Both the position numbers and the translations under genes were made by a program. Below, piece after piece: positions 1,845 to 60,844 of a stretch of 64,000 bases of DNA (position 1 is its first letter; each line of letters opens with the position of its first letter). The stretch is from the NCBI GenBank assembly GCA_024137785.1, contig JAHRHZ010000023.1, forward strand, positions 3,630,507-3,694,506, written 5' to 3'. The notes below the pieces were generated by a model. That model saw nothing but the letters and a program-made list of their open reading frames with translations, was not told the DNA's origin and ran no database searches. The DNA is from Ginglymostoma cirratum. Taxonomy: Eukaryota.

Positions 1845-2297
1845 GTATGTAACAGGAAGATCCTCACTCTTTTTCTTCTTGCTAAAGTGATATTTTCTCA
1901 TGACCCTTTAACCTATCTGCCACCTTCAGGGATCTGTGGACAAGCATCCCAAGATCCTTCAGTTCCTCTGAGCTTCCAAGTGTTCATTGAGTACTCCCTT
2001 GACTTGTTACTACTTGCAAAGTGCATCACCTCACATTTATCAGGGCTCAATTCCATCCATCACTGATCTGCCAGTGGTGATTGTAACAATGTCAGCCAGG
2101 GTGGACTTCATAGAATATGAGCTCCCTGATTGAGCTGTTAATCTGGTCCACTCAGGGAGTCCTGGCTGACAGATAAGAACAGGAGTGTCAGAGGTTTTGC
2201 TCACTATGAGACCTGGCTCTGAGGGAGCTGGATCCATGTCAAGGACTCTCCACGTGTAAATAAAGGGTCTCTTAGTAATGGGATACCAGCCTCTGTG

Positions 2298-2511
2298 GAA
2301 CCAAAACAAAGTTGCTGAAAAAGCTCAGCAGGTCTGACACCATCTGTGAAGGAGAAAACAGAGTTAATGTTTCGGGTCCGGTGACCCTTCCTCAGAACCT
2401 CAGAACCCAGTTCTGAGGAAGGGTCACCCAACCCGAAACGTTAACTCTGTTTTCTCCTTCGCAGATGCTGTCAGACCTGCTGAGCTTTTCCAGCAACTTT
2501 GTTTTTGTTCC
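2298..2511. mobile_element. PLE-derived fold-back element, family A (also ~5890-6220, 8650-8750, 9076-9180, 15598-16193, 30560-30750; older variants ~1315-1545, 17625-17735, 19283-19375)
   Basis: ~100-bp near-perfect inverted arms (GCTGGAAAAGCTCAGCAGGTCTG...GAGTTAACGTTTCGGGTCCGGTGACCCTTCCTCAGAAC) with a hammerhead core at each inner end. Confidence 0.8.
2409..2446 (+). ncRNA. Minimal type-I hammerhead ribozyme motif
   Basis: AGTT-CTGAGGA-A-GGGT(CACCCA)ACCC-GAAA-CG-TT-AACT. Confidence 0.65.
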
Positions 2512-2875
2512 AGCTCTGGAGTTAGTTCAATACACATCTGACCAATCCCTCTACATCCGCCTGTAACCTAACATCTACCTCCTGACTGTCAACCACCCGG
2601 CCAATCTCTGTGTCATCTGCAAACTTACTTACTATCCTCCGATACATTTTTCTGATGCATCAAATCAAAAGTACTTTCTGGAGTGCAATTTCAGATGAGA
2701 AGAATGTCAATATCTGAACCAGAAAGTAAATGGCTTCCCCCGTGTCTCCTGAAATATAAAGATCAGTTGCACTGAGCAAGGGTGTAGAGCACACCGTGTG
2801 CTTTCTGTAGGTGCAGTTTGTGACCCTGTATGATCAGGGAAACACTAATCCAGCTGCATTGTTAAAACATTGCAG

Positions 2876-2999: not shown

Positions 3000-5611
3000 G
3001 TAAGAAACTCAAACCCACGTTCACCTCGCTGAGCCTTACAGCTGCTGGCTATGATCCCATAAAGCAGTTACATGTACTGTGCATAATCTGGGTGATGTCA
3101 AAGGTTTCAAGGATCAGTTACTTGAACATAAGATTAATATACACATTGTAGATAGCTACTCACAAACTAAATATTGCGAACATCACGCAGAAATGTCTGG
3201 CAACAAGTTAGATAGAAATGAAATGACAGTGTCCTTCTCAGAGTGGTGGGACTGGTACATAGTAACACATACCATTGTGATTGATCTGTGTTCACAAGAC
3301 AACAGCCCAGTCTGTGCAGAGATAGTAGGAACTGCCAATGCTGGAGAATCTGAGATAACACACTGTGGAGCTGGAGGAACACAGCAGGCCGGGCAGCATC
3401 AGAGGAGCAGGAAAGCTAACGTTTCGGGTCAGGACCCTTCTTTCCTGACCTGAGACGTCAGCTTTCCTGCTCCTCTGATGCAGTCTGTACTGTGTCTTTG
3501 TGCAAAAGCTTGTAAGGTGGTTGTCTCCAGTCTCATGGCTTAGTACAAGGCAAGCAGCTCCCTGTTAGAAATTGTATTTCTATTCTAAACAGCGACACTC
3601 GTAATTCAGACAGACTGCCATTTTATAAGAACAGTTATTTGTAATATGTTCCCTGTGCTTGACTGGCCCATAAAACTGCACTCTTTGGGTGAAGCAGTTT
3701 AATTGCTGTTTCAGTTCAGATTTCTCATTTTGAGTGGAAAGTGCATCCAGGCCAGCATTTATTTCCCATCCCTAATTGCCCCAGAGAGCAGTTAAGGTTT
3801 GACCACATTTCTGTGTGTCTGGAGTCACATGTAGGGCAGTCCAGGTAAGGATGGCAGTTTCCTTCCCTAAAGGACATCAGTGAGCCAGATGGGGTTTTAT
3901 CCTGTCAACTGGCAACAATTTCATGGTCATTATTAGACTTTTAATTTCAGATTTTTTTTTTTACTTGAATTAAAAATTTCACCGTCTGCTGTGGCAGGAT
4001 TCAAACACAGGTCCCCAAAACATTATCCGGGTCTCTGGATTAACAGTCAAGTCTCGGCACCACTATGCTGTCTGCCTCCCTTTCATTCCCCAGAAAACTA
4101 TCACGTTGACGTGTCTGTGGTTTCCAACCCCAGAACAAGTTGTCTCAACGGCAGCAACCAGAGACTTCTCACAGCGGCCACCAGATGTCACACTACACAG
4201 GTCCGGAGCACCGGCTCAAAGCAGGAAGCAGCTGCAATAGTACTGAATATAGAACTAGAGATAGTGGGAACTGCCGATGCTGGAGAATCTGAGATAACAA
4301 AGTGTAGAGCTGGATGAACACAGCAGGTTTCAGGTTTCTGAGGAAGGGTCCAGACCCGAAACGTCAGCTTTCCTGCTCCTCTGATGCTGCTTGGCCAGCT
4401 GTGTTCATCCAGCTCTACACCTTGTTATCTCTGAATACAGAACTACATTTGTTTACCAACACAGCCTTCCCAATTTCCTAGCCAGCAATAATACACACCA
4501 ACAACTAAAATCACCTTTCTTCCACTGCTTCCTGCAACATGCAGGTAAGGTGACCATAGGGCTGGTCCCTCATTAGAGAGAGGCAGCTGGTGGTGGTTTC
4601 ATCTGAGGGTTACCACACCTCAGGCAAGGGGAGAGGTTGAGAAGGAGACTCCCACATGGTAATCTACAACAATCCTATTAATGAGTCACAAGGCAGCAAA
4701 CTTCCCCTGGATGAAAGAGTTTGGAGGTAGGTGAATAATCTCCTGAAGTGACATGAAAATGAAAGATTGTGTGAAGATTGTATCTATTCTCCAATTAGTT
4801 AATTCAAACACCAACCATTCTAGTAGAGCCTAAAGGAGGTGACAGCCTAGTGGTATTATCAATGGACTGTTAATCCAGAGAACCAGGTTCTGGATTTTTT
4901 TCCTATTCATTTTTGGGATGTGGGCGTCACTGTCTGGACCAGCATTTCTTGCCCATCTCTAGCTGCCCTTGAAAAGGTGGGGGTGAGCTGCCTTCTTGAA
5001 CTGGTGCAGTCCACCTGCTGCAGGTTGACCCACAATGCCATTTGGGAGGGAATTCCAGGATTTTGACCCAGTGACGGTGAAGGAACTTTTTTTTAATTCA
5101 TCCAGGGGATGAGGGCATCGCTGACCAGGCAACATTTATTGCCCATCCCTAATTGCCCAGAGAGCAGTTAGGAGTCAACCACACTGCTATGGGTCTGGAG
5201 TCACGTGTAGGCCAGGCCAGGTCAAGTAAGGATGGCAGTTTCCTTCCCTAAAGGACATTAGTGAACCAGATGGGTTTTTGCTAACAATTGGCAATGGATT
5301 CACGGTCATCATTAGACTCTTAATTCCAGATATTTATTGAATTCAAATTCCACCATCTGTTGTGGTAGGATCCAAATTGGCACCAAATCCACAAGCATCC
5401 ACTCCCCCCAGCACAGACACTCAGTAGTAGCAGTGTGTACTATCTACAAGATGCATTGCAGAAATTCACCAAAGATCCTCAGACAGCACCTTCCAAACCC
5501 ATGACCACTTCCATCTAGAAGGACAAAGGCAGCAAATACATGGGAACACCAGCCCTGGCAAGTTCCTCTCCAAACCACTCACCATCCTGACTTGGAAATA
5601 TATCACCAAAT

Positions 5612-8211: not shown

Positions 8212-8852
8212 GTAGACCTTTGGACTCTCAGAGAGAGAGAGAAAGAAAAGACTTGCACATATACCACCCCGTCCCTGGCCTTTGAATACCCTCGATACAG
8301 GCAGGACAGTGTCTTTCTTGTGAATGGACTAAAGATTGATATCAGAACTGTAGGTTATCAAATTTGCAAATGATCAAACAAGTTTCATTTGTATTGAAGT
8401 TAGGAACATTTCCAAAGACAGAAGCACTGTTAGAGTGAGCCATTTCATTAACTATATTTCCTGACCTTTCTCGTACAAGACTTAACAATATGAGATATTG
8501 CCAGCTATTGGGCCAGTGAAGGTTCATTAGGATGATCCCTGACATGGAGGAGTTGTCTTATGAGCAAAGCCCAAACAGGTTGGACTGTACTCACTGGAGT
8601 TTAGAAGAATGAGAGGTGATCTCATTAAAACGTATGGGATTCTTAAGGGACAAAAACAGAAATTGCTGGAAAAGCTCAGCAGGTCTGGCAGCATCTGTGG
8701 AGAGAAAATAGAGTTAACGTTTCAGGTCCAGTGACCCTCCTTCAGAACTGATTGTAGCTAGAAAATGTTGATTTTATGCAGAAGATTGGGTGGGGGGATG
8801 GGGGAAGGAGAAAATGATGGGTGGAGATAGAGCCCAAAGACAGAGATGTTGG

Positions 8853-9470
8853 CCACGGAACACCCAGTCTGAGGGCCCAAACACAGTGCTTTACCTGCAC
8901 TTCACCCAGTCTTGTCGACAGCATTTGCTGCTCACAGTGTGGTCCCCTCTACGTTGGAGAAATGAAGGTGACCGTTTCACAAACAGCTACATTTTATCCG
9001 CGAAAAAGACCCTGAGTTTCCTGTTGCCTGCCACTTTAACACACCACCCTGTTCCCTGGCCAACTTCTCTATCTCAGGAACAAAAACAGAAGTTGCTGGA
9101 AAAGCTCAGCAGGTCTAGCAGCATCTGTGAAGTAAAATATCAGAGTTAACATTTTGGATTCGGTGACCCTTCCTCAGAACTTGCTGCAGTGCTCCAGCGA
9201 AGCTCAGTGCAAGCTGGAAGAACAACACTTCATTTTCGACTTGGACTCAATATCGAGTTCAATAATTTTAGGACTGGAGGCACCTTCTCCAATGTTCTTA
9301 CCCCAACCCCTATACAACACTTTGTTATCACATAGTCTGCTATCACACAATACACATTGTTAGCTACTAACAGTCTCCATTAGCAATCATTCATTCTCCC
9401 AGACTGATCATTATCCAATCCTTTGTCTGTCCAACTGTTCTTCTCTCTCTTTGGGCTCTATCCCTGTCGA
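8853..9470 (+). mobile_element. Family-A PLE internal remnant with GIY-YIG-like peptide, interrupted by another family-A arm
   Basis: QCFTCTSPSLVDSICCSQCGPLYVGEMK and EAQCKLEEQHFIFDL in ORF track; ~9420-9460 is inverted relative to PLE arm sequence at ~6020-6055 and ~8825-8840. Confidence 0.65.
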
Positions 9471-12349: not shown

Positions 12350-12522
12350 GCAGAGAAAAGTAATTCGCGAATGAAGCAACTGAAGCGGCAGCTGGAAGAG
12401 GCTGAGGAGGAATCTCAGAGGATCAATGCCGCTCGGCGCAAACTCCAGCGAGAGCTGGAAGAGGCCACGGAGATGAATGAAGCCATGAGCCGTGAATGTA
12501 ACACACTGAAGAACAAACTCAG
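12350..12522 (+). CDS. MYH11: MYH11 last rod exon ([58 protein letters not shown])
   Basis: AAAG acceptor, GTAAAT donor; 173 nt; [26 protein letters not shown] motif. Confidence 0.95.
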
Positions 12523-13765
12523 GTAAATGCAACAACCCAGCCAATCTCCCAAAGGGGGAATTCGGTTGTGAGGGTCTCGGCCTACTAGCCTCTCCACAGT
12601 ACGGGAATTTCCCCATGTTGCTTGCTTGCTGAGACTTTATGTTTGATGGGATGTGGGCGTTACTGGCTAGGACAGGGCTTCTGGCTCATCCCTAACCTCC
12701 CTGCAACTGAATGGCTTGCTGGGGGCCAATGTCAGGGCACAGTTAAGAATCGACCCCATTGCTATGATTTTATCCATTTGCTTTTGGTGGGGACAGAGAA
12801 ACAGAAAGCAATTTACCAGTCTTCATCATTATCCCATGATCCGTGCTGCAAATTCCAGGATTAGGCTAAGGACAGATCAGCAGGAGAAAAAGGACATGTT
12901 GTTCTTAGTGTGTCCATAATGCCAGCAAGGCCTCAGTAATTGCCCAGTCCTAGTTACCCCTGTATGGGGTAATGGTGAGTCTTACCAAGTGAGCAGCTTG
13001 TCAGGACACTTCAGGGGTCATTAGGATCAACTAACAGTGTAGACCCAAGTTACACATAGACCCAGTAAATGGATAAATCCCGTTTCCAGGGACATTGGTG
13101 ACCTGGTTAACTTTTTATGACAATACATTGGCTTTAATGGCCTGTTTATTGGCTTTTACACTTTTTTTTCTGCATTACTACTTCTAAACCCTAATAGATT
13201 AGTTGAATTGGATTTCATAACTAGCTACGCTGTATTTGAACCCTCTGGATCTTTCATACTAGTTACAGAACCATCACATTCACAGATATTCAAAAATTGT
13301 TGGCCTGACGAAAACCTCAAAGCCCAGTGTAATACAGGCATAAACTCTACATGATCTCATTACAACATTTCAAAGACATTTGGATAGGGACATGAATAGG
13401 AAAGGTTTAGGGGGATATGGGCCAAACACAGGCAAGTGGGACTACTTCAGTTTAGGAAACCTGGTCAGCATAGATGAGTTAGACCATACCGTATGACTCC
13501 GTAACACTTCAGACTGAGTTCATTAAATATCACTGTGTATATTACCAACAGCTAAAGAACTGTTCCCTAACATAGAATAGATTTTACAATGGCTTTTCCC
13601 CCTCAATTTATTGCTATCTGCAGGATTTCACTTCGTAAGAGTCAGAGAGCGTTCTGTTTGTAGACCTCTGCTCAACATGTGCTCGCTCTGATTATTCTTT
13701 GTATTGAGAGTTATTTATAATAGGAATGATTTGTAACCGTGAGGGAAATCTTGTCTTTATTACAG

Positions 13766-13798
13766 AAGTGCACATGAACCTGCTCAGTGAATGCCCAG
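13766..13798 (+). CDS. MYH11: MYH11 SM2-type alternative micro-exon: (R)SAHEPAQ-stop (TGA at 13788-13790)
   Basis: TCTTTATTACAG acceptor, CAG|GTACCA donor; correct phase after ...KLR; ends Q-TGA-x8, like the mammalian 39-nt SM2 exon (GPPPQETSQ*). Confidence 0.8.
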
Positions 13799-15656
13799 GT
13801 ACCAATCCGCAGCTACGCAACTTTTAGTATTGCTCAAACTTCCAGCTCTTTTCCTCCTTAAGTACTGACACAAGGTTTCTGAAAACTCTGAAGGCTGAAG
13901 ACAAGTATCAGAATTAAAACAAAAGAAACAAGTGATGTAAAGACAGAAGAGCCACAGGATGTGATTTATATGCAACTTAGTAGATAGTGAGGGCTCAGGG
14001 AGATATAAATCTTATCTCATGGCTCTTCATCCTACATTCTCTTTATACCACATGTTAGATAAAACAGGAAACAAATTGTAACATTTCATGGACAGACAGT
14101 ACTGAATTTCAAATTGTTCCTGGTATGTTCACGCCTAACTATATTTTCTCCAACTGTGAAATACATTCCATGGAAATAATATTACATGTGGTATAAGTAA
14201 CTGGAACAGAAGTTCTAATAGATACAGAATAAACAGCTTAACACTTAATATTGCTGTGCAGATGCAGCAGAATGTGCAACTTCGATATGTACTCAAGGCT
14301 GTCACTAACAGTTTGTGCTTCATTTGACAAGACCCTGACACTGCCGAATCCTCAAAGATTTGTGAATCTTATTGTAGCCTTGATTGTGTTTTTTTTTTCC
14401 CTTACTCCTCACTCCTCAGACCTCACCCACATTTTGTTCACAGCTCACCTGCAATGGAGAGTTGGGAGCATGCACAGCTGTAGGCAAAGTGAGAATTCGG
14501 AGAAGTGAAGATCACCCAGTGGACCATTTCGACTCCTTTATTTTATCACATATAGGATTTGGGGAAACCAGCCACAAGTCAAACCATCTCCTTACCATCC
14601 CATAGCACAATGGGCCACAAATCACTGTAAAGTACAGTTATATGATCTTTTACTACATCAGCAGTCACTAAGGCATTTCTAAAAGCAAAACTCTGCGGCA
14701 GTTAAGGGGTCGACCCAGTCTGCTTTATTAATTCTAAGCTACAGAGCCGTTTTACTTTCAGAAGCCCTTTGAGGATGGTATGAATAATCAATTTAGCAGT
14801 TTCAACCAGATTACTTTTTTAAAAAATATATTTTTCATTCTTCATAAATTCAACAAAAATGAGACGTTGATTAAAAAGTTGATAGAGACGGATATTTTAT
14901 AATTTATTCTCATCACTTGGTCCTCAAAGGGTTAACGAAACAGACGTACAATAGGAAGCATGGCTATGGCATATTCACAAAAGATATTGTTATTTAAGGG
15001 CACACAGTGGCTGCAAACAAACTTATGGTGTTTGCTTAAACTGAATAACTGAGAATTTTGATATTAGCAGTATATTTTATGCCCATTTTAAGCTTATCAA
15101 CTGTTCACAACAGATCATCAGAGCCATGAAGTAATTAGTGCCCAGTTTATTTTCACACCGAAGCACAATTGAGGCACACTCACTGATGCTGTTTTATCTA
15201 ACTCCACTTCTTTGTAGAATTAAATTGCTTGAATAGACGTATAGACGATGCATTTATTAGGTTTTAAAAATATCCAGAAATAGCCCTACCTAGCCATTGG
15301 TACCCCAAGCATGTGTAGTTTCAAAGCACATCTATTTGCATGTTTGAAGTCACAATAGTAATTTGTCATAGGATAATCACTGTCAGCCAAGTGGGAAGAC
15401 TGCAATCGGACTGGTCATGGTTCCCACATTGATGGCAAGGGCTAGAGATTTAAATCAAAAATAGAATGTTTACCTCTCACCCACAATCTGTGTGCTGAAC
15501 ATGCAACGAAAAAGTAGTAGCTAGTTTCATGGAGAGATCACTAAGATTGACATTAGAAGTCAGGCCCTGACAGCAACAAACTACAATCCCTCATTACAAA
15601 AACAAAGCTGCTGGAAAAGCTCAGCAGGTCTGGCAGCATCTGTGAAGGAGAAAACA

Positions 15657-15696
15657 GAGTTAACGTTTCGGGTCCGGTGACCCTTCCTCAGAACTC
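15657..15696 (-). ncRNA. Minimal type-I hammerhead ribozyme motif (best-preserved copy)
   Basis: GAGTT-CTGAGGA-A-GGGTC(ACCG)GACCC-GAAA-CG-TT-AACTC: 5-bp stem I, 5-bp stem II, palindromic ACGT in place of stem III. Confidence 0.7.
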
Positions 15697-15697
15697 A

Positions 15698-16097
15698 NNN
15701 NNNNNNNNNNNNNNNNNNNNNNNNNNNNNNNNNNNNNNNNNNNNNNNNNNNNNNNNNNNNNNNNNNNNNNNNNNNNNNNNNNNNNNNNNNNNNNNNNNNN
15801 NNNNNNNNNNNNNNNNNNNNNNNNNNNNNNNNNNNNNNNNNNNNNNNNNNNNNNNNNNNNNNNNNNNNNNNNNNNNNNNNNNNNNNNNNNNNNNNNNNNN
15901 NNNNNNNNNNNNNNNNNNNNNNNNNNNNNNNNNNNNNNNNNNNNNNNNNNNNNNNNNNNNNNNNNNNNNNNNNNNNNNNNNNNNNNNNNNNNNNNNNNNN
16001 NNNNNNNNNNNNNNNNNNNNNNNNNNNNNNNNNNNNNNNNNNNNNNNNNNNNNNNNNNNNNNNNNNNNNNNNNNNNNNNNNNNNNNNNNNNNNNNNN
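15698..16097. other. Assembly gap (400 N)
   Basis: N run. Confidence 0.99.
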
Positions 16098-16547
16098 TTT
16101 TCTCCTTCACAGATGCTGCCAGACCTGCTGAGCTTTTCCAGCAACTTTGTTTTTGTTCCTGATTTACAGCATCCGCAGTTCTTTCGATTTCAGCCTTCAT
16201 TACAAGGTTTCTTTAATTATAAAATGCTGCATCATTTAAAGAGAATTCACACACGTCACAATCTATCTACCTAAATTTTACAATCGTCCACAGGCACCTT
16301 TTTAGTTGTGGAAGGCTGGAAGGTAGTTAATCTGAAAACATTCCTTGTTAGTATCGTTTAAACCAGCAGACACCTTTCTCATAGTTGAGAATCTCAAGTA
16401 GTTGGGAGACCTACATCCATCTAGCGCATCATTGGCTGTTGATGGATTGCGCACCTCTTTACATTAAAAGTCGATAGAGAGTTGTTTGCAGGGGTCATCA
16501 AGTTTTGACTTTTGCTGCTTGCTAACATGCTGCATCCCTTGGTGTAG

Positions 16548-16689
16548 ACGGGGAAACGAGCCGATGTTGAGTGGAACACGGAGATCTGGTGGCAGACGCG
16601 GAGTAATCGATAACACCTCACTGGAGAACTCTGATGAAGATGCTGGAGGACGAGATGCAGACTTCAATGGTACAAAACCAAATGAATAA
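16548..16689 (+). CDS. MYH11: MYH11 terminal exon, SM1 non-helical tailpiece (RGNEPMLSGTRRSGGRRGVIDNTSLENSDEDAGGRDADFNGTKPNE*)
   Basis: GCTAAC branch point at 16521, TAG acceptor; RGNE...RRSGGRR...RDADFNGTK distinguishes MYH11 SM1 from MYH9/MYH10. Confidence 0.95.
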
Positions 16690-31510: not shown

Positions 31511-32425
31511 TGATACTATGAGTATCATTTGCAACTTAAATCAACTTCAGTTTCAACATTGCCCGGATGCTACTTCCTGCAGGAGCAAGTAATATCCAAA
31601 AAACCATCCTATTCAAATTCAAAATTTCCTGGCCACTTGTTTTCTCTCTCTCTCTCGTGCAAAGGTTGCCTAACCAGTTCCACCTCCATAATATATTTTG
31701 CTTCTACTCCCATTTCAATGGGTCAGCCATTAAAAAACTCAACGTATCAGTTATGTATCATTTCTGAAGAAGGGTCTAGGCCCGAAATATCAGCCTTCCT
31801 GCTCGGCCTGCTGTGTTCATCCAGCTCTTCATCTTGTTATCTCCAATGTATCAGTTAATTGTGCTGAGCCAGTCCACTTCCCTTACGCCATTCTAAATAA
31901 CCTGCAGGTTATTCAGAGCTCTACCGAAAATTCCTATACTTTGCCAGGCCCTACTCAGCCATTACCTTCCCTTAGATGCATACCAACTCTAGGTCTTCAT
32001 GTCTTAAAAATATATCCTTATCCCTCCACACACCTCTCCATTGCTAATTCCTCTTGTACTCTTCTAATCTTGATGACGGAATCCTGAACGCATACTAGTA
32101 AGAGGCACCTAGGATCCAATCTCTGGGTTTACTTCAAAACATGATGCGAAACTTGGACCTGACCAATCTTTGGCATACTCCTTGTTTGACATTCATCTTT
32201 TTTTATACCTCCGAAGAGACTGTATTTAATGCAAATTGGTTTTGTTTTGATGAATTGGGCATCTTATAAATGCCTTTATAAGCACAGGCTGGAGTACTTA
32301 TTTGATCAAACTACAGAACAATATAGTCAGCTATTTAGCCAAGCACTTTAGCAGGATACAAGTGCAGTTCAGTTATAGTAGTTGCATTTCAAAATACTTC
32401 AAGTCTGTTAAATCATTTTACTAAC

Positions 32426-32580: not shown

Positions 32581-33959
32581 CTGTAAAAAGACAAAGTGCA
32601 AAATTTATTAAATGTTTACCTCAATGTTTACTACAAACACAATCTTACAAATCAAGCATTGGCTTGAAGTCAGTTTCCAACAGTTGTAGCTAACAGCACT
32701 CATGTTTGTCAAACATTAATTACAAGGAGGTCATTCTTCCTCTCAAGTCTGCTCTACCATTTCACAAATTCATGGCTAATTTAATACCACTCCTGCCCAC
32801 CACTCAACTCTGACTCTCTTGTCAATTAAGAATCTGACTCCCACTTAAAATTATTCAATGACCCCCAACGTCCACTGCCTGGAGACAATGTCTCCCAGAC
32901 CAAACAATCCTGGAGGAAAAGATTCTCAACTTCATCTGAAGTGGGAAACATTTTTTTTTTTAAAAAAAGCTGTTCTAGTCTGTCACTTAAGGGGAAACAT
33001 CCCCTCACTATCCACTCTGTCAATTCCCTTCAGGATCATGTTTTTCAAAAAGAACATCTTATTTCTCAAAACTCCAGTGGACACAGGTCTAACTTCTCCA
33101 ACCTTTTCACAGAACAAGTGAACCTTCCAAACTAATGTTATGTCCATCCAATTGCAAACATCCTGATTTTCATATTCCAATTCCCTTGTAATAAACTACA
33201 ACATTCCAGCTTCCTTCCTGAGGGCTTGCTGCAGCTACATACTAACTTTGTGATTCGCGTATAACGACACCTAGTTTTTCCCTTAATTCATTCATGGAAT
33301 GTGGATGCCGCCAGATTGCCCAATTATGGATTTACAATAAATGGTCTAAGGGCAGTTAAGAGTTAACCACATTATTATGGACCTGGAGTCACATTGAACA
33401 GGTAAGAATGGCAGAATTCCCTCCCTAAAAGGCATTAGGGAACTAGATAAAAATAATCGAGATAAATCTGGAATTAAAAAAACTATAGTTTTTATTGAAT
33501 TCAAAATTTCAACATCTGCCATTGGTGGGATTTGAACATGGACCCCAGAACAACGGCCTGCGGTTCTGGTTTACTAATCCAGCAACACTACAGTACACCA
33601 CTGCCTCGGTTTTACAATCTCTCCATTTGAACTACAGCTTCTCCATTCTTTCTGCCATATTCATATTTTTCTAGGCTATACTCCAGCTGCCAATTTTTGC
33701 CTACTCACTTCATCTAATCCCTTTGTAACCTACGTCCTCTTCACTTTTCTATTTGTGTGTCAAATTTAGCAACTATAAATCTGGTTCCTTCATCTGAGTC
33801 ATTTACATAGATTGTGAATAGCTGAGGCCCCAACACAAATAGAGATATCTCATTGGTTACAGCTTACCACTCTGAAAATTACCTATTTTCCCTGCGTTCC
33901 AGTCAACCAATGTCTTATCCACAATAACATCCTTTCCCGACTCCACTTCATGAGTTCTT

Positions 33960-34700
33960 TGAAGGTTTTAGCAAAGATATGTAGCTCGGGTCGTGGGTGA
34001 GGTTTTGACTTGCTCGGCCTTGTTCAGACGTTTCTTCACCATGCTAGGTAATATCATCAGTGAGACCTTCAATGAAGCAATGTTGTTCTACTCCACTTAG
34101 AATTTATACTGTCCGGTCTGTTATGGCAAGTAATGTCATTTCTAGTTTTGTTCTGTATAAGTTTGTATATGGGGTCCAATTCTATATGATTGTTGATTGA
34201 AGCATGGGTGGAGAATTAGTTTTGATTTCAATTCGTAGTGATCGTAGGAGTTTACAAAATACCGTTGCAATGACTGCCACAAACATTACATCAGACAGAC
34301 GGGAAGGACCTCCTAGCCATCAGAATACACTAACATTAGCTAGCAGCAAAACGACACAACGAACTTTCCTTAATATCAGTACACTAGGACAACGAAGGCC
34401 ATCAGTTTAACCAGGATAACGTAACCATCGCAGCCCAAGCCAACCATAGACACACACGGGAATTCCTAGAGGCATGGCTCTCAACCCATAATGCAATCAC
34501 CAAACATACAAACTGGACCTCATATACAAACCCATAAAGTACAAAACCAGAAAGGACATTACTCACCATAACAGACTGTACAGTATAAATTCCAAGCGGA
34601 GTAGGACATCGTTTTATCAGAGGCCTCACTGATGATGTTACTTAGCATGGCGATGAAGTGTCTGAATGAAAACAAGCCAGCTCGCCGAGCAAGTCAACAA
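33960..34700 (+). mobile_element. Penelope-like element, family C, with inverted ends and GIY-YIG remnant
   Basis: GVYKIP / CNDCHKHYIRQTGR and EGHQFNQDNVTIAAQANHRHTREFLEAWLS peptides; ~34005-34200 inverted versus ~34490-34697; hammerhead core in each arm. Confidence 0.75.
34024..34063 (-). ncRNA. Minimal hammerhead ribozyme motif, family C
   Basis: TCA-CTGATGA-TATTACC(TAGCAT)GGTGAA-GAAA-CG-TC-TGA; unrelated flanks but same core. Confidence 0.6.
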
Positions 34701-36955
34701 TTTCATGAGCTCTTATCTTGTGTAATTATCTTTGATGTAACACCGTGCCAAAATGCCTTTTTGAAAGCCAAGCAAATCACGTCTACAAGACGCTCTTTAT
34801 CCACATTCCTTAATCCGTGAACTCCAGCCAAACAATTTTCCTTTCACGCACCATGTGGACTCTGCCTAATTGCATCAAGATTTTCCAAAATGCTCTGCTA
34901 CAACCTTGGTGAATAGTACATCCAAATCATGCTTCAGACTCAACATTGGAATTTATACATTAGCACAAAGCTGTATACTCACCCACTAAACACAGCAGAT
35001 AAAAAGTCACTGCTTTCAAGAGCAAGTGATTTTTTTTTGTTACAGACAGGACCAGTCATTCCTGGCAAACAAGCTCTGACAGAAAAAGGCTGAATATGTG
35101 CAATCTCATTTCTTTAGAAGTTCCTGTGTTGATGATACATTAAAAGTATTTTTGTGTTTCTATCACATATCTTACCCCTTTAATTTATCTTCTGCACATG
35201 ATTTAAATCTAAATTTATACTCTCGGTAACAATTCAGATTCTTTGATCCAATTGGTTGAAGGACCATGCTATTGCGTGTGTGGTGCAGTTTCCCTGCAGA
35301 GAGCACAGTGCCAGTTCAGACATCCACAGCAACAAGTTACTGCTAAATAAATAGGCTGTGCCGAGTCTTTGGCCAGCTGTCAGCATCATGATGAGACAGA
35401 GCTGCCCCTTCACTCATTGCATAATCTGGGCCACAGAATCCAATATGCTAAATGTCTCATGTCAAGTCATCTTGTCAAATAACACTACAAGCTGTTCAAT
35501 ACTGACAGAGAAATTTTCCAAGTTTCACATTTCACAAAAAAAAAGTGGCTCAGTTTCTTAATCATATCACTCCAAAGGTGTCCAAATTTAAACTGTGGCT
35601 TTCTCTCAACTTGTTACTTTTTTTTTAAGAAACAGCCTAATGTGGGGCAGGTTAAAGCTCAATTGATCAAGACAGCCACTGCACATTAGCACATCTAAGA
35701 ATGTCAGTGAAAACAGTCAAGTCCAGTGAATATGCACAGATAAGTACATCACTACCTATTCATAAGCAAATAGCAATAAAAATTAAAATGAATAGCAGCC
35801 TACATCAAAAGTCTTATGGGGAGAACAAAATACAATGTATTTCTTCTTAAAAGTGTTTGCAGTACCGAGGACAAACACATTTATATCAATCTTCAACAGG
35901 CCCATGCCCAAGGAGACCAAATGCAAAGCTCCAAGAACATGTAAGCACACTATTTGCTTAAACTCAACAAATATTGACTGCCACTCTCTTTCCCATGGTA
36001 ATGCCTTGACCAGTCAACGTGCCTGGTTTCAAATGTAAAGCCTGGAGGTTAACAGCCATTGTTAACTGCTGCTTTCTCCGTAGCTAAGCTCTTACCAGAG
36101 TCTACCTCGCCAACCAGTGCTTGGTTCACATATGGTATTTTTTCCACATTTTGCAAAAAAAAAAAAAAAGTTCTGTCGAGTGCAAGATGAGAAACAAAAC
36201 TATTCTGTTTACTGCAACCTACCTTCACTGGTCAGTATATACACTGGCATTCCTACAATGTCAAACTGTAAGACTGGCCATATCAGTAATCTCAAATAAG
36301 GCCTGAGCCATTTGGTCGATAGACAAATTCAATGCAGAAATCAGGTACATTAAAGCCATCCTGCAGGATAACAGCAACCCCAATAAGATCATTTCTTTAT
36401 GATCTTATGAACATCCCATGAACAGCCCTGAAAAGTGGTCCCTTTGGATTCCAAAGACTATTCTACTTCAGGTAGTCTCCCAAAGCTTTCAGCAAACTGA
36501 AGTTAGCTGTCTCCCTCTCTACTACCATACAAAAGCAACATGAGCGGCAAATGCCACGAACAGATTGCTGCAATCAAGCCAAAAAGGCATTCTGCCTGTC
36601 GCAAGTGGGATGCATGAATTGCAGGGCTGGTGCAATGGCAGGTATGTAGACAAATTACCATTCTGCCAGTCTTCGCATATCAGACAGCAGATCCTTTAGG
36701 TTGTTGGTACAAGGTACTGACCGTACGCAACCTGCATACACCTGCAAGGCTTGTGTCAGTGTGCAAAAGTGGCTGCGATTTCATAATTGGACAACAATTG
36801 CTGGACAATGCTGAGTGCATGACAACCTACTCCAACAATCAATTTATCATAGTCATTTGGCTTGCAGTGCATTATACTCGCACGCACTGGGAGTTTTGTA
36901 TTTTTATATACAGGTCCTGGTTCTTTGCAGTCAGAAAGGAAATGTACATAAACTA

Positions 36956-37111
36956 GAGATAACAAGGTGTGAAGCTAGATGAACACAGCAGGCCAAGCAA
37001 CATCATAGGAACAGGAAAGCTTGACGTTTCGGGCCTAGACCCTTCATCAGAAAATCAGCTCCACACCCCGTTATCTCAGATTCTCCAGCATCTGCAGTAC
37101 CTATTATCTCT
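36956..37111. mobile_element. PLE-derived fold-back element, family B (also ~1-83, 3318-3480, 4258-4430, 23560-23710, 25797-25991, 31754-31843, 53926-54003, 57375-57444, 57776-58510)
   Basis: Consensus GAGATAACAAGG..GAGCTGGATGAACACAGCAGGCCAAGCAGCATC..GACGTTTCGGGCCTAGACCCTTC; perfect 15-bp TSD AATGTACATAAACTA (36941-36955 / 37112-37126). Confidence 0.8.
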
Positions 37112-38927
37112 AATGTACATAAACTACACCTGTTTTAATCCTACAAATCCGCTTGTTCACGTTTCAGGGCAATGTCTTGAGCAGAGTCAATTTGTCTGGT
37201 TAAAAATTTAAAGTAAACTCTGGCAGTTGACTGTCAATCATCTTTAAGTGCTGCATTATCCATGCCAATGCCTCTATCATTTAGTCAGCACATGACTCAA
37301 AATAGAAATGTTGGTTTCTCCCTTAAGTTGGTTCTTTTTTTAAAAACACACATCAGGATCATACACAGGATGAAAAGCTTTGCTGAAGTGCATTTTTTTT
37401 CAGCAACACAAATTATCTAATGTAAGTTGAACACCATGTCTACACGTTAATACCCTGCTCCATTGTGTCCATGCAGAAAAGTTATAAAGGTGCTAGCATT
37501 TGCAAACCAAGCCTTTGGCTTTCCTTTGATATACTTTTCTTATGGTTTGATGTGACCAATGTCCTTGGGGCAGCCAAAAGGATTATGCTACATATGCTTG
37601 GAAGCAGGAAAGGCAAAGACTCTCAGTTTGAGTTCCAAAAACTTGACAAAGTTAGAAAGCTGGACCTTGAACAGTCAAGGCACTGAAGGAATCCAGAGAT
37701 CAGGCACTAGTGAGAACCTGACTTAATATTGCTGCTGTCATTGTGTGGCTGAAGAAAACTTGTAGGAAAGGTAAAGAAGGATTCCAAATTTTGGAGGCAG
37801 GAAGGACTGGGACAAGATGTATAGTTACACCTCAACAGCTGGGATCAGTGTCCTTAAATTAATTTAAAACCTCTTCTTAACAACAGGAGGAGCACGAGAT
37901 AATTAGAAGATACGGAGAGTGGAGAAACAAACTGCACTGCAATCCTAAAGGACTCAGAAATCGGTGAAAATACAAGCTGTGCATGTTCTCCAATACACAA
38001 AGTATTGTCACATGGGGTTATAATGGAATGTCAATAACCAAGCTGTGAATCAGACACAGGAGAGTTGAGAATTTAACATCACGCACTACACGCTGCCTTT
38101 AGGAAAGATAAGGGCAGAGCAGTATTGAACAGAAATATGGTTATATCACTAGAGAAAAATTATTACTTCAGGGATGAAGACAGAAGCAGTGTGGTTGAAA
38201 TTAGGAGATCAAATACACCTAAGTGAATACAAAAGAGCAAATATTGGTAAAGACAGAAGTACCTACATAAAATGGGGGCCCAGGGGTGGTGGTGGTGGGC
38301 GAGAGAACAAAAGGGAGAGAGAACGTTCTTAAAATCAGCATATTTTCAATTGGTTAGTGAAGTGGGAGCATGGCACCTTTTTTCAGTGGGGAGTGCACTT
38401 AGGGAAACTAAAAGGGGTCACATCATCAGATCTGGAGTGCGTACGAAAAAGATTGCAAGGAACAAATGGAAAGACGACTGACTTTGGAAGAGGGGCTGTG
38501 CTCAGGAAATTGGCAAGACGACAGGTAGTAGTTCAGGTACAACCTTAACACATTCTTGCAATGGAAGGGCAAAGCCACAGTTCCAGGTGACTAAATAGCA
38601 TCAGATTATAATTATATTAAAAACAGCTTTCGATAATGTCAGATTAATAACTTTGTACAGAACTAAACTGTATTATTTTCTTCCGTGCATCAGTATTCAG
38701 GATGAAGAATACATTTAGCCGAGGTACCAATTGAGAATTAAGCATTTGTTTTCACAATGTTGGATGCTGTTGTTTTATAAAAGGAGAAGGTTGTAAATAG
38801 GTTTGATAAGCTAAAACAACAATGGGACTTAAGAGGTCAGTAGATTCAAAGTGGAAAAGCAGTCACCCATTCCAGTGGGGACATATCTAATTTACGCCCC
38901 TAGAGTAGCGAGTGGGTTTAGCAGAAA

Positions 38928-39902
38928 GAGATAAAAAGGTACTGCAGATGCTGGAGAATCTGAGATAACAAGGCATGGGGCTGGATGAACACAGCAGGTC
39001 AAGCAGCATCATAAGAGCAGGAAAACTTGACGTTTCGGGCCTAGACCCTTCATCAGAACTGGGGGAGGGGAAGAGGGTTCTGAAATAAATAGGGAGAGAG
39101 GGGGAGGCGGATAGAGGATGGATAGAGGAGAGGATAGGTGGAGAGGAGGCAGACAAGTCGAAGAGGCGGGGACGGAGCCAGTAAAGGTGAGTGTAGGTGG
39201 GGGGGTAGGGAGGAGATAGGTCAGTCCAGGGAGGACAGACAGGTCAAGGGGGCAGGATAATGTTAGTAGATAGGAGATGGGGGTGTGGCTTGAGGTGGGA
39301 GGAAGAACAGGTTAGGGAGGCGGAGATGAGCTGGGCTGGTTTTGGGATGCGGTTGGGGGAGGGGAGATTTTGAAGCTTGTGAAATCCACATTGATGCCAT
39401 TGGGCTGCAGGGTTCCCAGGCTGAATATGATTTGCTGTCCCTGCAGCCTTCAGGTGGCATCGCAGGAGGCCCAGGATGGACATGTCGTCTGAGGAATTTG
39501 GGGGGGGGGGTGTGGAAAGAGTTGAAATGGTTCACGACTGGGAGGTGCAGTTGTTTGTTGCGAACTGAGCACAGGTGTTCTGCAAAGCAGTCATCTCCTA
39601 TCTACTAGGATCATCCCGCCCCCTTGACCTGTCCGTCCTCCCTGGACTGACCTATCTCCTCCCTACCCCCCCACCTACACTCACCTTTACTGGCTCCATC
39701 CCCGCCTCTTCGACCTGTCTGTCTCCTCTCCACCTAGCCTCTCCTCTATCCGCCTCCCCCTCTCTCCCTATTTATTTCAGAACCCTCTTCCCCTCCCCCA
39801 TTTCTGATGAAGAGGAGTCTAGGCCCGAAACGTCAAGTTTTCCTGCTCCTATGATGCTGCTGGGCCTGCTGTGTTCATCCAGCCCCACGCCTTGTTATCT
39901 CA
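38928..39902 (-). mobile_element. 5'-truncated Penelope-like retroelement (family B) with ~300-bp inverted pseudo-LTR and GIY-YIG C-terminal remnant
   Basis: Minus-strand peptides DCFAEHLCSVRNKQLHLPVVNHFNS, DDMSILGLL and QQIIFSLGTLQPNGINVDFTSF; TSD GGTTTAGCAGAAA (38915-38927 / 39903-39915). Confidence 0.8.
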
Positions 39903-41149
39903 GGTTTAGCAGAAACTTTGGTTACTATCTTCCAATTCTCAGGACTGGAGGATTGAAAAGAATGAAAGAGATGAATCCGTCAACTGCTCAGTGTTGGGAA
40001 AACTGGAAATTAATATCAGACTAAAGTGATTATCACCTGATACCTAACATGAGCAAATTAATGACAAAACATTTATTAAAAAGGGAAATTTTGTTTGACA
40101 GTTCTTTATGATGGAATAATGGAGAGAGGGCATTTGATGCACATGTGGACTTATAAAAAGGTACTTAATAAAACATATCACATTAAACTAGTTAGTATAA
40201 TTGAATTCCCATTTGACTAGGAAGGGCAACGGTAATGAAATTCACAGAATCATTAAAAGGTAAAGTTGCCACTGTCCCAGAGGAGGAAAAACAGCTCGGT
40301 ACTGGAATTAAAACTGATCAGCGCTGCTGGAAACACGTAAAGATTGATTAGAAGAGCTGATCTAAAACACAGGGCACATTGTCTTGTCAGATGAAGAGCC
40401 ATTTTCAAAATAGGAATATTTACTGTCATCCAAGCACTTTAGTGGAGGAGACAGCAATTAATTTGCACACAAAGACCTTAATTTCAATCACACTAGTGAC
40501 AACAGAAAACAAGTCAAAGATTTAATTCTGCTCCGAGCAATATCACGATCCTAAAACAATGGATGTTTTACAGTTTGGAAGTAGCCCAAGAGAAAACGAA
40601 CAAAGAAGATACATATTAAATCACCTGGGTTTATGGTCCCATTGCCTCAATTCCAAAGTAAAGAGACAAATGTTACTGGTATCTGCACGTTAAAACATGG
40701 TATCTGTGATGTTCTGGAGATGAAAACTCCCAAAGATGTCAAGTGGGACAGGAAAATGGTTTTGAGATGGCAGCAGTGCATGGTACTGCCACTGGGGTGG
40801 GGGCTGTGTAATTTCCATAGTTAGTTAGCATGCTGGGAACTAGAGGATGAAAATGGAATTTTAAGCTCTGACACAGAGGCAGGGATTTCCTTGAAGACTT
40901 CCATGTGTAGCATAATTGTTGAAGAGAAGTTTAAACTTCTCAGGCAGTTGGTGTGTGGGTCTGTGAAGTGAAGAGATCCCACAGCACATCTTTTCGGATA
41001 CATTATTGCAATCAAGCAAACTGTGCCGATAAGGAAGGACACTTAGTCTTGCTCTAGGACCTCTTTGCATTCTTGTGGCTTATTAATCCTAATTGTATAG
41101 GCCATTAGGGTATAGTTATGTCACCATTTAAGAAACAGCTAGTGACAAG

Positions 41150-56300: not shown

Positions 56301-57487
56301 AACCATTAACAACCTCAACTTGTGCCAAAAACAAAACCACTGCCACAAAATAAACCTACTGCACACCTATGCCAGCATGAATGGGCAGCTAGCCTGTTTA
56401 AACTGGGTAAAATCCTGCCAGGTTAAATTGAACACATTACTGACGCTATGATCTTTTTCCCTGGCTAGACAATACCACCAATGTGCAGCGATTAGAAGAT
56501 ACAACTGAAGGATGAGGAGGCGGGGGAGAATCTAAGCATTTAACGTCTTCAATTGGATGCAAATTTTCTACTGACATAAGGGGCCCACTGCCTGAGTAAT
56601 TGCCCCAATACAAAATGGAATATTGGAGAGAGGGTCACTAAACCTTTCATAAGCAAACAAAAAGGTTCTCCCCATCCGCAGTTTATAAACACTTCTGAAG
56701 TAAACAGTTTAAAAAAAAACAAAATCGCCATTTCAATGTGGTTCTAGTTTGTAATGTTTACGCTCACTCTAGCAGTAGAAATATGTTGCCCATTAGTGTG
56801 GGCACAGTAAATCATCATCCACTACTTGCATCATAAAGAGTGTAAAATAAGCCTTTCAACTACTTGGACATCGTTTACCAAAATATCAGGCCAACCTGCA
56901 TCCGTCTAAGGCAGTGACATTGTAGTAATATCACTCGATTAGTAATCCATAGACCCAGGCAGATGCCCTCGAGAATCAGTTTCAAACCGTTGAGCTTGTG
57001 GAATTTAAACCTAATTAACGAAACATGGAAAATAAAAGCTGGTCTTGGTAACTATAACATGAAACTACCTATCTGGTTCATTAACATCCTTTAGGAGAAA
57101 GAAATCTGCCCCTCTTAACTGGTCTGATCTACATATGAATCCAGATTTATTATAATGTGGCTCACTCTGAACTGGCCCAGCTAGCCATCCAGTTCAAAGG
57201 CAATTGGGAATGGACAAATGCTAGCTTTGCCACAGGCATGATATCCTATGAAAGGATAAAAAAAAAACACAGACACCAAGTCTCCAAGATGTTCCAGTCA
57301 TCAATACAGAAGAACCCTCCCTTCCTGTTACAAGTATTGCAACAACATAGATAAAGCAGCTACTTCAACAACATGGGGCTACTTCATCCAGCCCCATGCT
57401 TGTTATCTCGGATTCTCCAGCATCTGCAGTACCTTTTATCTCCTCTACTTCAACAACATTTTGCGATTACATTTTCCATTCATGTAC

Positions 57488-57641
57488 CTTAAACAAGTCA
57501 AGTTCCACGCGGAGACGATTGTTGTCTGACAGCAAGTCTCGATTTCTGCTTTCAGCATGTTCAAGCTGAGTTTCCAGTTCTGCTTCTAATTCACGGCTTC
57601 CTTCCTGGAACTCGATTAGCTCTTCCCGAGTATTCTGTGCA
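57488..57641 (-). CDS. NDE1: NDE1 coding exon 2 ([51 protein letters not shown])
   Basis: TAG acceptor, GTACAT donor; 154 nt; [13 protein letters not shown] and RNRDLLS.NNRLR match NDE1. Confidence 0.95.
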
Positions 57642-57976
57642 CTAATGGTGGGATCAAAATAACGTCAATCATTTTTAACGTCAATCTTTTTTAACATTTT
57701 GAATTTCCCCAACATCTTGAGCAAAACTAGGGTCTGTAACTACAAGATAACCACTAACAAATCTAAGAATTAAGGAATAGTAGGAACTGCAGATGCTGGA
57801 GAATCTGAGATAACAAGGAGCAGAGCTGGATGAACACAGCAGGCCAAGCAGCATCAGAGGAGCACGAAAGCTGACGTTTCGGGCCTAGACCCTTCTTCAG
57901 AAAAATTGGCTTGCTGTGTTCATCCAGCGCTACACCTTGTTATATCAGATTGTCCAGCATCTGCAGTTCCTACTAT

Positions 57977-58376
57977 NNNNNNNNNNNNNNNNNNNNNNNN
58001 NNNNNNNNNNNNNNNNNNNNNNNNNNNNNNNNNNNNNNNNNNNNNNNNNNNNNNNNNNNNNNNNNNNNNNNNNNNNNNNNNNNNNNNNNNNNNNNNNNNN
58101 NNNNNNNNNNNNNNNNNNNNNNNNNNNNNNNNNNNNNNNNNNNNNNNNNNNNNNNNNNNNNNNNNNNNNNNNNNNNNNNNNNNNNNNNNNNNNNNNNNNN
58201 NNNNNNNNNNNNNNNNNNNNNNNNNNNNNNNNNNNNNNNNNNNNNNNNNNNNNNNNNNNNNNNNNNNNNNNNNNNNNNNNNNNNNNNNNNNNNNNNNNNN
58301 NNNNNNNNNNNNNNNNNNNNNNNNNNNNNNNNNNNNNNNNNNNNNNNNNNNNNNNNNNNNNNNNNNNNNNNNNNNN
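57977..58376. other. Assembly gap (400 N)
   Basis: N run. Confidence 0.99.
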
Positions 58377-58378
58377 CG

Positions 58379-58414
58379 TTTTCTGAAGAAGGGTCTAGGC
58401 CCGAAACGTCAGCT
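58379..58414 (+). ncRNA. Minimal hammerhead ribozyme motif, family B (similar at ~39027-39060(-), 4335-4368(+), 37020-37052(-), 57870-57902(-))
   Basis: CTGAAGA-A-GGGT(CTAG)GCCC-GAAA-CG-TC; stem I is weak in this copy. Confidence 0.55.
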
Positions 58415-58966
58415 TTCCTGCTCCTCTGATGCTGCTTGGCCTGCTGTGTTCATCCAGCTCTGCACCTTGTTATCTCAGATTCTCCAGCATCTGCAGTTCC
58501 TACTATCTCTAATAAAGCATTAAGCCATTTTACCCAGAGAGACTGCAATATGAAACCACAGGAAGAAACTTTACAGTGATCTTTTCAAAGGAATCAATAA
58601 GCGAGGTAGACAGAATGGAATGAAGACAGAGTTGGATGAAGACTGGTGGCAGAAGTTTAATCTAGAGTTTATGCACCAGCACACACCATTTAAGTTGAAT
58701 GGCCTGTTTACACACTGAAAAATTATGTTAAAATATTTCAATTGCAGAGTCAGTAATTAACCATTTATAAAACAAGTTAAAGTATCAGTTAGTTGCAAGA
58801 AACAGATAGTGCAGGGCATTACATTTGTGTAAAAAGTGATTAGAACTTTTACACATGGATATCAGCTTTTAGCTTTACATATTCAAAGTGTTCTATTTGT
58901 AAATATTCACAATAACCAAACTGAGCCCCACATTTTCTAATTAGTACATCCTTGTTCTGTACTTAC

Positions 58967-59052: not shown

Positions 59053-60517
59053 TGCAACAGGTCCAAATTTGCTGTCTACATTCAAACAGAAAGCAATATA
59101 TATCACACACTATTCAAGTTCAGTAAAGATATTTGCCTGAAAAATACAAGCAGTCATGCGAAAGCTAATTTTTTTTTTTCCATTCTCAGGCCAGCCTAGC
59201 ATAGAGTCAGTCCTCCCCACATCCATGTGATGTACAGCTATTATATAGCTGGCATTAAATACCAGGGATAATCTCAAACAACTCTGACATGTTGTAGCGT
59301 GTTTCCTTTTCTTTTAAACTTGAAGGTCTAAGACTGTGACAACAGCTTTAGTAATTTGATCATTACTAAGCTCCCAAAAAAATAAAGCCCTCCTTTGTCA
59401 CACTCTAGCTGTGAACATAAAGGCTTAATGCAATGAAGGATCAAATGATAGCTTTGCTGGTATGGCTTGAGTAATGCATAAAGTCATTTTCATAAATCAA
59501 GAAAATGCCAGAGTACGATTAAAAAAAATATTTTGCTTTGAAAGAAAGCACATTTCTAGCTATTCTACCCGATCACTTTCTGTGTGAACAAACGCACAAC
59601 GCAAATAAGTCTTTCTGACATAGACTGTGGCACTGGTAAATTCATCACTCTACCTGATACAAAAGTCATAAAAAGGGTCTTTAATACTTTTCAAGATAGG
59701 TACAGAATTTTTATGAAAGTGGTAGGCAGAGCACAAGGCCACCTCAGCAGAGGTGCGTGTGCATGTGCATGTGCGTGAAAAAACAAACAGTCCTTAGAAA
59801 CCTTAACGTCTCTTGGCTCGGGCTTCTTTGTTGATATTCAACAGGTTGGCATCTTGGGCCTTATTAATTACACACTGAGTAAAGGCCAATAATGATGTTC
59901 AGTACAAGGCAAACTAAATGTGATCTCAAGCTAAAGTAATGGGCAAAGGGAGGGTGACCCTCCCACCTCCCTGCAGACATCGGTCAGAGCTACTCAAATA
60001 AGGTGACTAGTGGAAGGGAACCAACCAATCCCCAGAAATAAAGTACATCAACACTCATACGGAGACAGGGGGTGGTCCTCATCAAGAACTGCCTTGTCCA
60101 GATAACCAGAAAGTTTGGGGAAGAGTTTCCTAACTCTTTACCTACTCAGTCTAATGGTCCTACCACAGCTACAGACCAAAAACTATATGCCAGCCATTCA
60201 TTGGCCACCCAGGATCAGTCAGCCACACTCACCTGTTACAGGTTGTATGCTCCTATCTATTTAGCTTTTGCATCAGATCTACACTAAGTTCCTTAATAAA
60301 CTATCTTAAAATCACTCAAGTTCTCAATCACGTTTTTGGGTAATCTATGAATTGTGAACCTTAAAAAGCTTACAAATGGTACAAAGCTAATGCAAAGATA
60401 GAACTGAAGTTGTGCTAACCCAATCATGATAACCTGCAGGTATCATTTCTCAAAAGTACTAATTTTGTGGGTGGAGACATTGGACAATCAGCAGGATTGA
60501 GTCTATATATATTTATG

Positions 60518-60685
60518 ATGGGGAGGTGCCAGTGTTGGACTGGGTGGACAAGGTCAGAAATCACACGATGCAGTGTTCCGTACGCTTCTTTCTCACTTCA
60601 CCCAAAGGAGCAATGCTTCAAAAGCTCGTGTTTTCAAATAAACCTGTTGGACTTTAACCTAGTGTCGTGCAATTTCTGACTTCAC
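60518..60685. mobile_element. Degenerate fold-back PLE-like element, family D
   Basis: Inverted ends GTCAGAAATCACACGA / TCGTGCAATTTCTGAC; eroded hammerhead-like AAGGAGCAATGCTTCAAAAGCT; flanking ATA(T/C)ATTTATG repeat (60507-60517 / 60686-60696). Confidence 0.5.
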
Positions 60686-60844
60686 ATACATTTATGTTTA
60701 ACATTTTACTTAACTACACTACTTTATAAAGATGTTAAAACCTGATGGTTGTAAGGAAAAAGAATCATCCTCCAAATGCAATTCTGCCTTTCAGAGCAAC
60801 TCAAAAATCAATTTGCATCACAAATAAATAGGGTGGGTATGGCA

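Follow-up and report, generated by a model that had tools for sequence, protein, structure and literature searches.

The minimal hammerhead ribozymes of metazoan Penelope-like retroelements (PLEs) combine a type-I core with one extra nucleotide between A9 and position 10.1, a G10.1–C11.1 pair, a palindromic 15.2–16.2 step and no loop III. They lie in pseudo-LTRs, mostly as solitary copies or as opposite-strand pairs 100–700 bp apart, and were reported to show no activity as monomers and low activity as dimers (Cervera and de la Pena 2014, PMC4209133). With its own descriptor, that study counted about 4,000 copies in coelacanth and 9,000 in Xenopus tropicalis. The EN+ PLEs encode a C-terminal GIY-YIG domain followed by the 3′ UTR and the pseudo-LTR, leave inverted, 5′-truncated pseudo-LTRs and, in Neptune and Nematis elements, have a CX2-5CxxC linker ahead of the endonuclease; canonical hammerheads are missing from Naiad PLEs, which are nevertheless successful (PMC8557442). 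For Poseidon of Anolis carolinensis (PAc), biochemistry shows protein-assisted cleavage that is dispensable for insertion: the motif cleaves and C3G/G8C rescues it, catalytic mutants insert unimpaired in vitro, and uncut RNA is the main template in vitro (Frangieh 2024, PMC11167929). Non-LTR retrozymes, which are defined as tandem arrays, carry a type-I hammerhead of PLE pseudo-LTR origin and are reported from one chondrichthyan genome (bioRxiv 10.64898/2026.07.22.740005).

In a 64,000-nucleotide stretch of the genome of the shark Ginglymostoma cirratum (hereafter the window), every sequence feature of the PLE minimal hammerheads of PMC4209133 is present, with cleavage being predicted, and the pseudo-LTR position, the predominance of solitary copies and the opposite-strand pairs are shared as well. 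The differences are that the host is a shark, which that study does not appear to list, that the copy number is about ten times the 9,000 of Xenopus tropicalis, though by a different descriptor, and that stem II (4–6 bp) and stem I (2–4 bp) are shorter than in its Schistosoma families. The order of GIY-YIG domain, 3′ UTR and pseudo-LTR and the inverted, 5′-truncated copies are those of EN+ PLEs. With PAc, the shark copies share a hammerhead within the pseudo-LTR, an apparently uncut template and the lack of RNA-seq ends at the cut, but they are known from sequence and models rather than from biochemistry. With non-LTR retrozymes they share the ribozyme type, the PLE pseudo-LTR origin and a chondrichthyan host, but they occur singly or head-to-head. 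Our literature search found no shark-specific description of PLE hammerheads; one supplement of PMC4209133 and those of the 2026 preprint could list sharks.

Very probably, the motifs are minimal hammerheads of type I that belong to the pseudo-LTR ends of PLEs from three lineages; they are likely maintained by selection in source elements only, likely decay neutrally once inserted and are predicted to be mostly inactive in host pre-mRNAs. The observations behind this reading are the motif itself, the upstream GIY-YIG end, the inverted layout, target-site duplications, copy numbers, the decay pattern and the host strand.

Hammerhead cores and host genes in the window

Our strict descriptor combined CTGANGA, one nucleotide, a stem II of at least 4 bp with a Watson–Crick first pair, GAAA, a complementary 15.2–16.2 pair, T and H, and placed no requirement on stem I. 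Eight motifs of the window satisfy it (cores at 2413+, 4338+, 31764+, 58383+, 57900−, 39056−, 37050− and 15691−) versus none in each of 100 dinucleotide shuffles. All eight have the one extra nucleotide before stem II and the G10.1–C11.1 pair, which is kept as G–C in 50 of 64 family B and 20 of 48 family A sample copies. Stem I reaches at least 3 bp in three of the eight and is just 2 bp in five family B copies of the window. A search with profiles built from genomic copies raises the number of pseudo-LTR fragments to 37 (14 of family A, 18 of B, 3 of C and 2 of D), and the core is spanned by 19 A/B copies, two C copies and an eroded D copy, so the "well over a dozen" intact or eroded cores claimed by the initial annotation hold. 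A search of the window against Rfam, with E up to 10, gave 17 matches, none of them to a hammerhead family, a silence that fits motifs without a stem-loop III.

On re-reading, the layouts and coordinates of 15657–15696(−), 2409–2446(+), 58383–58410(+), 39060–39027(−), 34063–34024(−) and the eroded copy at ~60600 are as first described. Some details did not stand. The family C example at 34063–34024(−) is not intact: it has A–A instead of G–C as its first stem II pair and fails the strict descriptor; the two family B examples, credited with a paired stem I, form only 2 bp each; and the fifth pair of GAGTT/AACTC is no family feature, being paired in 5 of 20 family A loci. The strict core CUGANGA…GAAA with U16.1 and H17 is absent from the cited family C and D copies. 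We rejected a look-alike, CTGATG…GGAAAC at 3880(−) and 7442(+), that has no A9 and no ACGU/AGCU-H end or cleavage triplet. It belongs to another abundant repeat of the window (3774–4081, 5092–5371, 7394–7611, 18878–19233 and 51437–51726).

The + strand exons match a myosin tail, closest to myosin-11 and including the last exon, and open frames on the − strand match a NudE-family gene, in agreement with the host genes named at the outset. We take the latter, from synteny with MYH11, to be NDE1 rather than NDEL1.

16546..16686 (+), last coding exon of the myosin-11-like host gene
near 1726–1887, 2811–3029, 6635–6844, 8068–8370, 12326–12523 and 13766–13798 (+), other myosin-11-like exons
57470..57664 (−), exon of the NudE-family host gene
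near 58966–59109, 48278–48457, 45405–45584, 45120–45323, 43003–43188 and 32416–32604 (−), other NudE-family exons, open frames

In an unstranded, fragmented poly(A) library, 41 reads splice 13798 to 16546. Coverage falls after ~17,400 and, repeats aside, is about 1 or less as far as ~22,700, and a second plateau at ~26,800–29,400 is likely the NDE1 3′ UTR. A second read run yielded 30 and 14 reads, which were not informative. The splice and the coverage plateaus place the 15657–15696(−) hammerhead antisense in the last MYH11 intron, beyond the apparent 3′ end of NDE1. The exon at 13766–13798(+), 33 nt long, carries a stop codon and is the one those 41 reads join to the last MYH11 exon. It resembles the exon of the SM2 (short-tail) isoform in mammalian MYH11, which suggests that an SM2-like splice choice exists in sharks.

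The hammerhead-bearing insertions of the window, with their orientation relative to these genes, are as follows.

15657..15696 (−), intact family A minimal type-I hammerhead with stem I of 5 bp, stem II of 5 bp, ACGU palindrome and GUU site, antisense to MYH11 and predicted to be cut between 15662 and 15661
15593..16188, family A pseudo-LTR arms inserted head-to-head in the last MYH11 intron and flanked by a 9-bp direct repeat; the + arm reads N at its ribozyme part
2293..2531, family A fold-back pair with arms 93% complementary over 103 nt; + arm intact (core 2413), sense in MYH11; − arm has lost G16.2
4257..4444, family B insertion; the intact + arm (core 4338) has a stem I of 2 bp and is sense in MYH11, and the ribozyme is missing from the short inverted arm
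8634..9250, two eroded family A copies (−) with broken GIY-YIG fragments (+)
31759..31857 (+), family B copy with TA instead of CG at 15.2–16.2, which keeps the palindrome; flanked by a 10-bp direct repeat and antisense to NDE1
33955..34707, Penelope/Poseidon-type pair of family C in head-to-head layout, with erosion in both ribozymes: 34063–34024(−) with A10.1–A11.1, 34629(+) with GAAG and TG; each downstream of a GIY-YIG frame end
36944..37114, family B insertion flanked by a 15-bp target-site duplication; the − arm (core 37050) is intact, has a stem I of 3 bp and lies sense in NDE1
38930..39928, head-to-head insertion of family B, flanked by a 13-bp target-site duplication; the intact − arm (core 39056) is sense in NDE1 and follows the 3′ UTR and the GIY-YIG C-terminus (~39312–39450, −); + arm eroded
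57775..58513, head-to-head pair of family B whose arms show 98% complementarity across 128 nt; the two cores are intact, the one at 57900(−) sense in NDE1 and the one at 58383(+) antisense; stem I 2 bp
60516..60688, family D pseudo-LTR pair; + arm core destroyed, AGCU palindrome and stem I′ remaining

Pseudo-LTR lineages of Penelope-like elements

Whether in the window or elsewhere in the genome, every family sits downstream of a gene end that encodes GIY-YIG. This context and the core features bear out the earlier attribution to minimal type-I hammerheads of PLEs whose stem III is palindromic, and we identify all four families, by their sequence surroundings, as pseudo-LTR ends of PLEs. In the window, the family B copy 39056(−) and both family C copies come after the end of a GIY-YIG reading frame. 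At genomic loci of families B, A and C, the frames match the Pfam GIY-YIG domain with E values of 1e-4 to 2e-3 and scores that do not exceed the curated cut-off; the family B frame does so at its end (1e-4 to 9e-4), and the A and C matches are weak. At locus L191 a reverse transcriptase (RT) match (E 9e-4) lies upstream, with RT and GIY-YIG in consecutive broken frames. The longer homologues of the family B frame (n=87) are mostly RTs, with or without a GIY-YIG annotation; those with both are single proteins, and the closest homologue is a bamboo-shark protein (67% over half the query).

The family D pseudo-LTR lies on the same strand, 490–890 nt downstream, in all nine loci picked by their GIY-YIG gene end, which was judged by motifs rather than by Pfam in loci retrieved with an inverted gene-end fragment. 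Directly upstream of the pseudo-LTR, no open reading frame on its strand was seen in the first 15 loci of family D. In this family (L246–L254) a CA-microsatellite tract directly follows the GIY-YIG stop, and a gap of 500–900 nt then precedes the ribozyme. The CX4CX2C linker is present in B and D loci and absent from the family C locus L074, which covers the region. Judged solely by this linker motif, A, B and D resemble Neptune-type and C resembles Penelope/Poseidon-type EN+ PLEs (PMC8557442), family A being placed by its likeness to B because the linker was not read in frame there. Among six extended loci we saw no intact full-length element, and none was read with two pseudo-LTRs. Family B copies lie within or abut family D elements at L038, L045, L039, L247 and L251, which hints that PLEs insert into each other.

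The families had been called unrelated. Families A and B are alignable downstream of the ribozyme with a z of 8.7, above all 1000 shuffles, and their stem II differs by a single one-sided U–A/U–G change; the remaining five family pairs fall within their shuffle range in the same alignment test. By sequence, A and B are thus related subfamilies, and we count three lineages rather than four unrelated ones. The proposed ACGU palindrome of stem III (15.1–16.1, no loop III) is found in A, B and C, but D has AGCU.

Across the genome, exact pattern matches number at least 38,817 (B 31,575, A 6,885, C 213 and D 144), and reversed controls give none. A sample of 152 evenly spaced 10-kb stretches, with 755,504 readable bases, holds 28 strict motifs, 19 of them with a stem I of at least 3 bp. 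Scaled up, this amounts to about 80,000 strict motifs in readable DNA (95% range 53,000–116,000), from a sample that may be biased, as about half of the sampled DNA reads N, and that contained 12 exact family B matches against 11 expected. The very large repertoire first suspected is therefore borne out in number. Scaling up from the window would nevertheless overstate it, since intact motifs are about three times denser there (8 in 63 kb) than in the sample (28 in 756 kb of readable DNA).

Of 224 A/B copies in the sample and the window, 104 belong to head-to-head pairs; neighbours within 1.5 kb are head-to-head in 52 cases, tail-to-tail in 11 and on the same strand in 12, and the window shows no tandem arrays of ribozymes. 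Direct repeats of 7–15 bp, the shortest of which may be due to chance, flank 9 of the 13 window insertions tested. Head-to-head inverted pseudo-LTRs are a described PLE layout (PMC3846280, PMC8557442).

Decay of inserted copies and the host pre-mRNAs

The initial annotation had proposed comparing core and flanks across genomic copies. Core changes outside CpGs are fewer than the base-matched flank expectation in both families (37 versus 53 in A, 11 versus 28 in B), and the same holds with an indel-free flank block (39 versus 55 and 12 versus 21); simulated ascertainment and alignment bias accounts for only 5–6%. Between the arms of head-to-head pairs, by comparison, the core differs at 15 of 190 sites versus 14.3 expected, a small comparison that covers the 24 of 52 pairs with enough shared coverage and assumes that both arms stem from one insertion. 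Counting all 52 pairs without matching, a coarser approach, yields a lower rate in the core, 0.085 versus 0.129 (p 0.036). Decay of the core after insertion is thus likely neutral, at the flank rate, although the matter is not closed.

The catalytic centre holds two CpGs, kept in 14 of 48 and 13 of 45 family A copies and in 46 and 44 of 64 family B copies. Among core-spanning copies the motif is intact in 2 of 48 (A), 30 of 64 (B), 1 of 10 (C) and 0 of 1 (D). The pattern fits selection in source elements followed by neutral decay. In 31764–31791(+) both bases of the 15.2–16.2 CpG have changed, from CG to TA, restoring a palindrome (AUAU); double deamination can imitate a compensatory change in these ribozymes.

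Copies transcribed within MYH11 and NDE1 had been suggested to cleave these pre-mRNAs by trans-dimerisation. More broadly, intact intronic copies might cut host pre-mRNA in trans or in cis over a few kilobases, possibly aided by PLE protein, with effects on MYH11, NDE1 and numerous further genes. Five intact copies are indeed sense, in both genes (2413 and 4338 in MYH11; 57900, 39056 and 37050 in NDE1), among them two same-strand pairs spaced by about 2 kb (2413/4338 and 39056/37050); poly(A) RNA is rich in family B, with 30,754 of 12.9 million records on one 2.8-kb stretch; and the 15657–15696(−) sequence is predicted to form a double hammerhead within 5.5 kcal/mol of its best dimer. That copy, however, is antisense to MYH11, 58383(+) is antisense to NDE1, and for four of the five intact sense copies the same RNA carries, less than 1 kb upstream, an antisense copy that matches almost perfectly, with predicted duplexes of −60 to −76 kcal/mol versus −1 to −11 for the double hammerheads of the same copies (energies that omit tertiary contacts). 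The exception is 37050(−), the only intact sense copy without an antisense partner to its ribozyme within 1.5 kb, yet the double hammerheads of family B, 37050 included, are predicted to lie about 30 kcal/mol above the best dimer.

The wider record also speaks against host cleavage. Fragments in the window have no strand bias relative to the host (13 sense, 16 antisense), the core decays between arms in a neutral-looking manner, and the published minimal hammerheads cleave poorly even as dimers (PMC4209133). The ends of poly(A) reads do not pile up at the cut site, and at no place do a fifth of the molecules begin or end, either in family B (about 6,900 reads deep) or at the 15657–15696(−) copy, which is weak evidence given the fragmented library, and 85% of the family B records continue into unlike sequence, as passenger copies would. 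The copies in host pre-mRNAs are likely mostly inactive, being decayed, oriented the wrong way or predicted to be folded shut, and we consider cleavage of the host unlikely. Slightly more doubtful still is a scenario in which tens of thousands of intact hammerheads sharing ACGU are transcribed and, with PLE protein, unsequestered sense copies such as 37050(−) cut host pre-mRNAs; if it were true, pairing with the abundant family RNA would amount to a transposon-driven load of RNA cleavage on host genes.

A domesticated intronic hammerhead of the RECK type is ruled against by the antisense orientation of 15657–15696(−) and by the neutral decay between arms. In the predicted monomer fold of family B, for example of 37050(−) and 39056(−), CUGAUG of the core and CGUCA at the cut site pair into an inactive hairpin, which could be a built-in off state.

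Hammerhead motif, probable template and copy ends

All search patterns imposed stem II, and the family D pattern imposed stem I as well; since these stems were built into the searches, stem I of A and C offers the sole non-circular test of pairing. There, 51 of 60 cells are paired in A and 46 of 60 in C, and every slid control is lower (best 40 and 29). Across lineages the catalytic positions are fixed, and the pairs around them vary: 2.1–1.1 is U–A, A–U or C–G, 2.2–1.2 is U–A, C–G or A–U, and 15.2–16.2 is C–G or G–C. Within family C (20 loci, L066–L085), the stem I pair 2.3–1.3 is U–A in three loci and G–C in four, a two-sided change; many of these pairs are broken, probably by CpG decay.

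If the motif were non-catalytic in these elements and conserved as a hammerhead-like promoter or protein-binding signal, the weak stem I of family B would be accommodated, as would the unimpaired insertion of anole catalytic mutants in vitro (PMC11167929) and the success of Naiad PLEs lacking canonical hammerheads (PMC8557442). Such a signal is nevertheless hard to reconcile with the retention of all catalytic positions in three lineages while stems I, II and III change two-sidedly, and the anole motif does cleave, with rescue by C3G/G8C (PMC11167929). We hold this possibility, too, to be improbable.

Copies often start 1–7 nt before C3 (26 of 75 in A and 19 of 80 in B, in the first 100 stretches and the window); 11 of 75 and 13 of 80 run at least 20 nt upstream of C3, and 2 and 11 end at an N or a stretch edge. 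Only 5 of 224 A/B copies start within 2 nt of the predicted cut. A cluster of family B starts 3–6 nt past the cut site was considered as a cleavage footprint and proved to consist of N edges, stretch edges and deletions. The template was likely uncut, with its 5′ end just before the ribozyme, although the shared 5′ start could have a cause other than the start of the element RNA.

Least probable of all is that the short copies are a non-autonomous, retrozyme-like family spreading via ribozyme-cut circular RNA rather than truncated by-products of full PLEs: most copies are 100–150 bp long with a common 5′ start, and non-LTR retrozymes derived from PLE pseudo-LTRs are described in one chondrichthyan (bioRxiv 10.64898/2026.07.22.740005), yet retrozymes are tandem arrays and only 12 of 75 neighbours here are on the same strand, the copy ends are not at the cut site, and short and long copies have the same pseudo-LTR sequence, many reaching into the GIY-YIG frame.

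We return to the reading of pseudo-LTR ends from three PLE lineages, pasted across the genome as short, often head-to-head insertions. The element RNA may start a few nucleotides before the core and be reverse-transcribed uncut, which would give the shared 5′ start. Cleavage after GUC or GUU would occur only as a double hammerhead joined via ACGU or AGCU, probably aided by the element protein, as published for other PLEs. Selection likely keeps the motif intact only in source elements that are copying, and inserted copies likely decay neutrally, CpG deamination at C11.1–G12 and C15.2–G16.2 then turning genomic copies off.

The shark motifs are real members of the already known kind of PLE hammerhead, and mostly passive relics. 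With about 80,000 strict motifs in readable DNA, this genome offers a large natural sample in which to ask what the function of PLE hammerheads is. The copies answer part of it, in that the core is selected in source elements and not visibly after insertion. The insertion ends point to an uncut template that starts just before the ribozyme, in agreement with the anole result in vitro.
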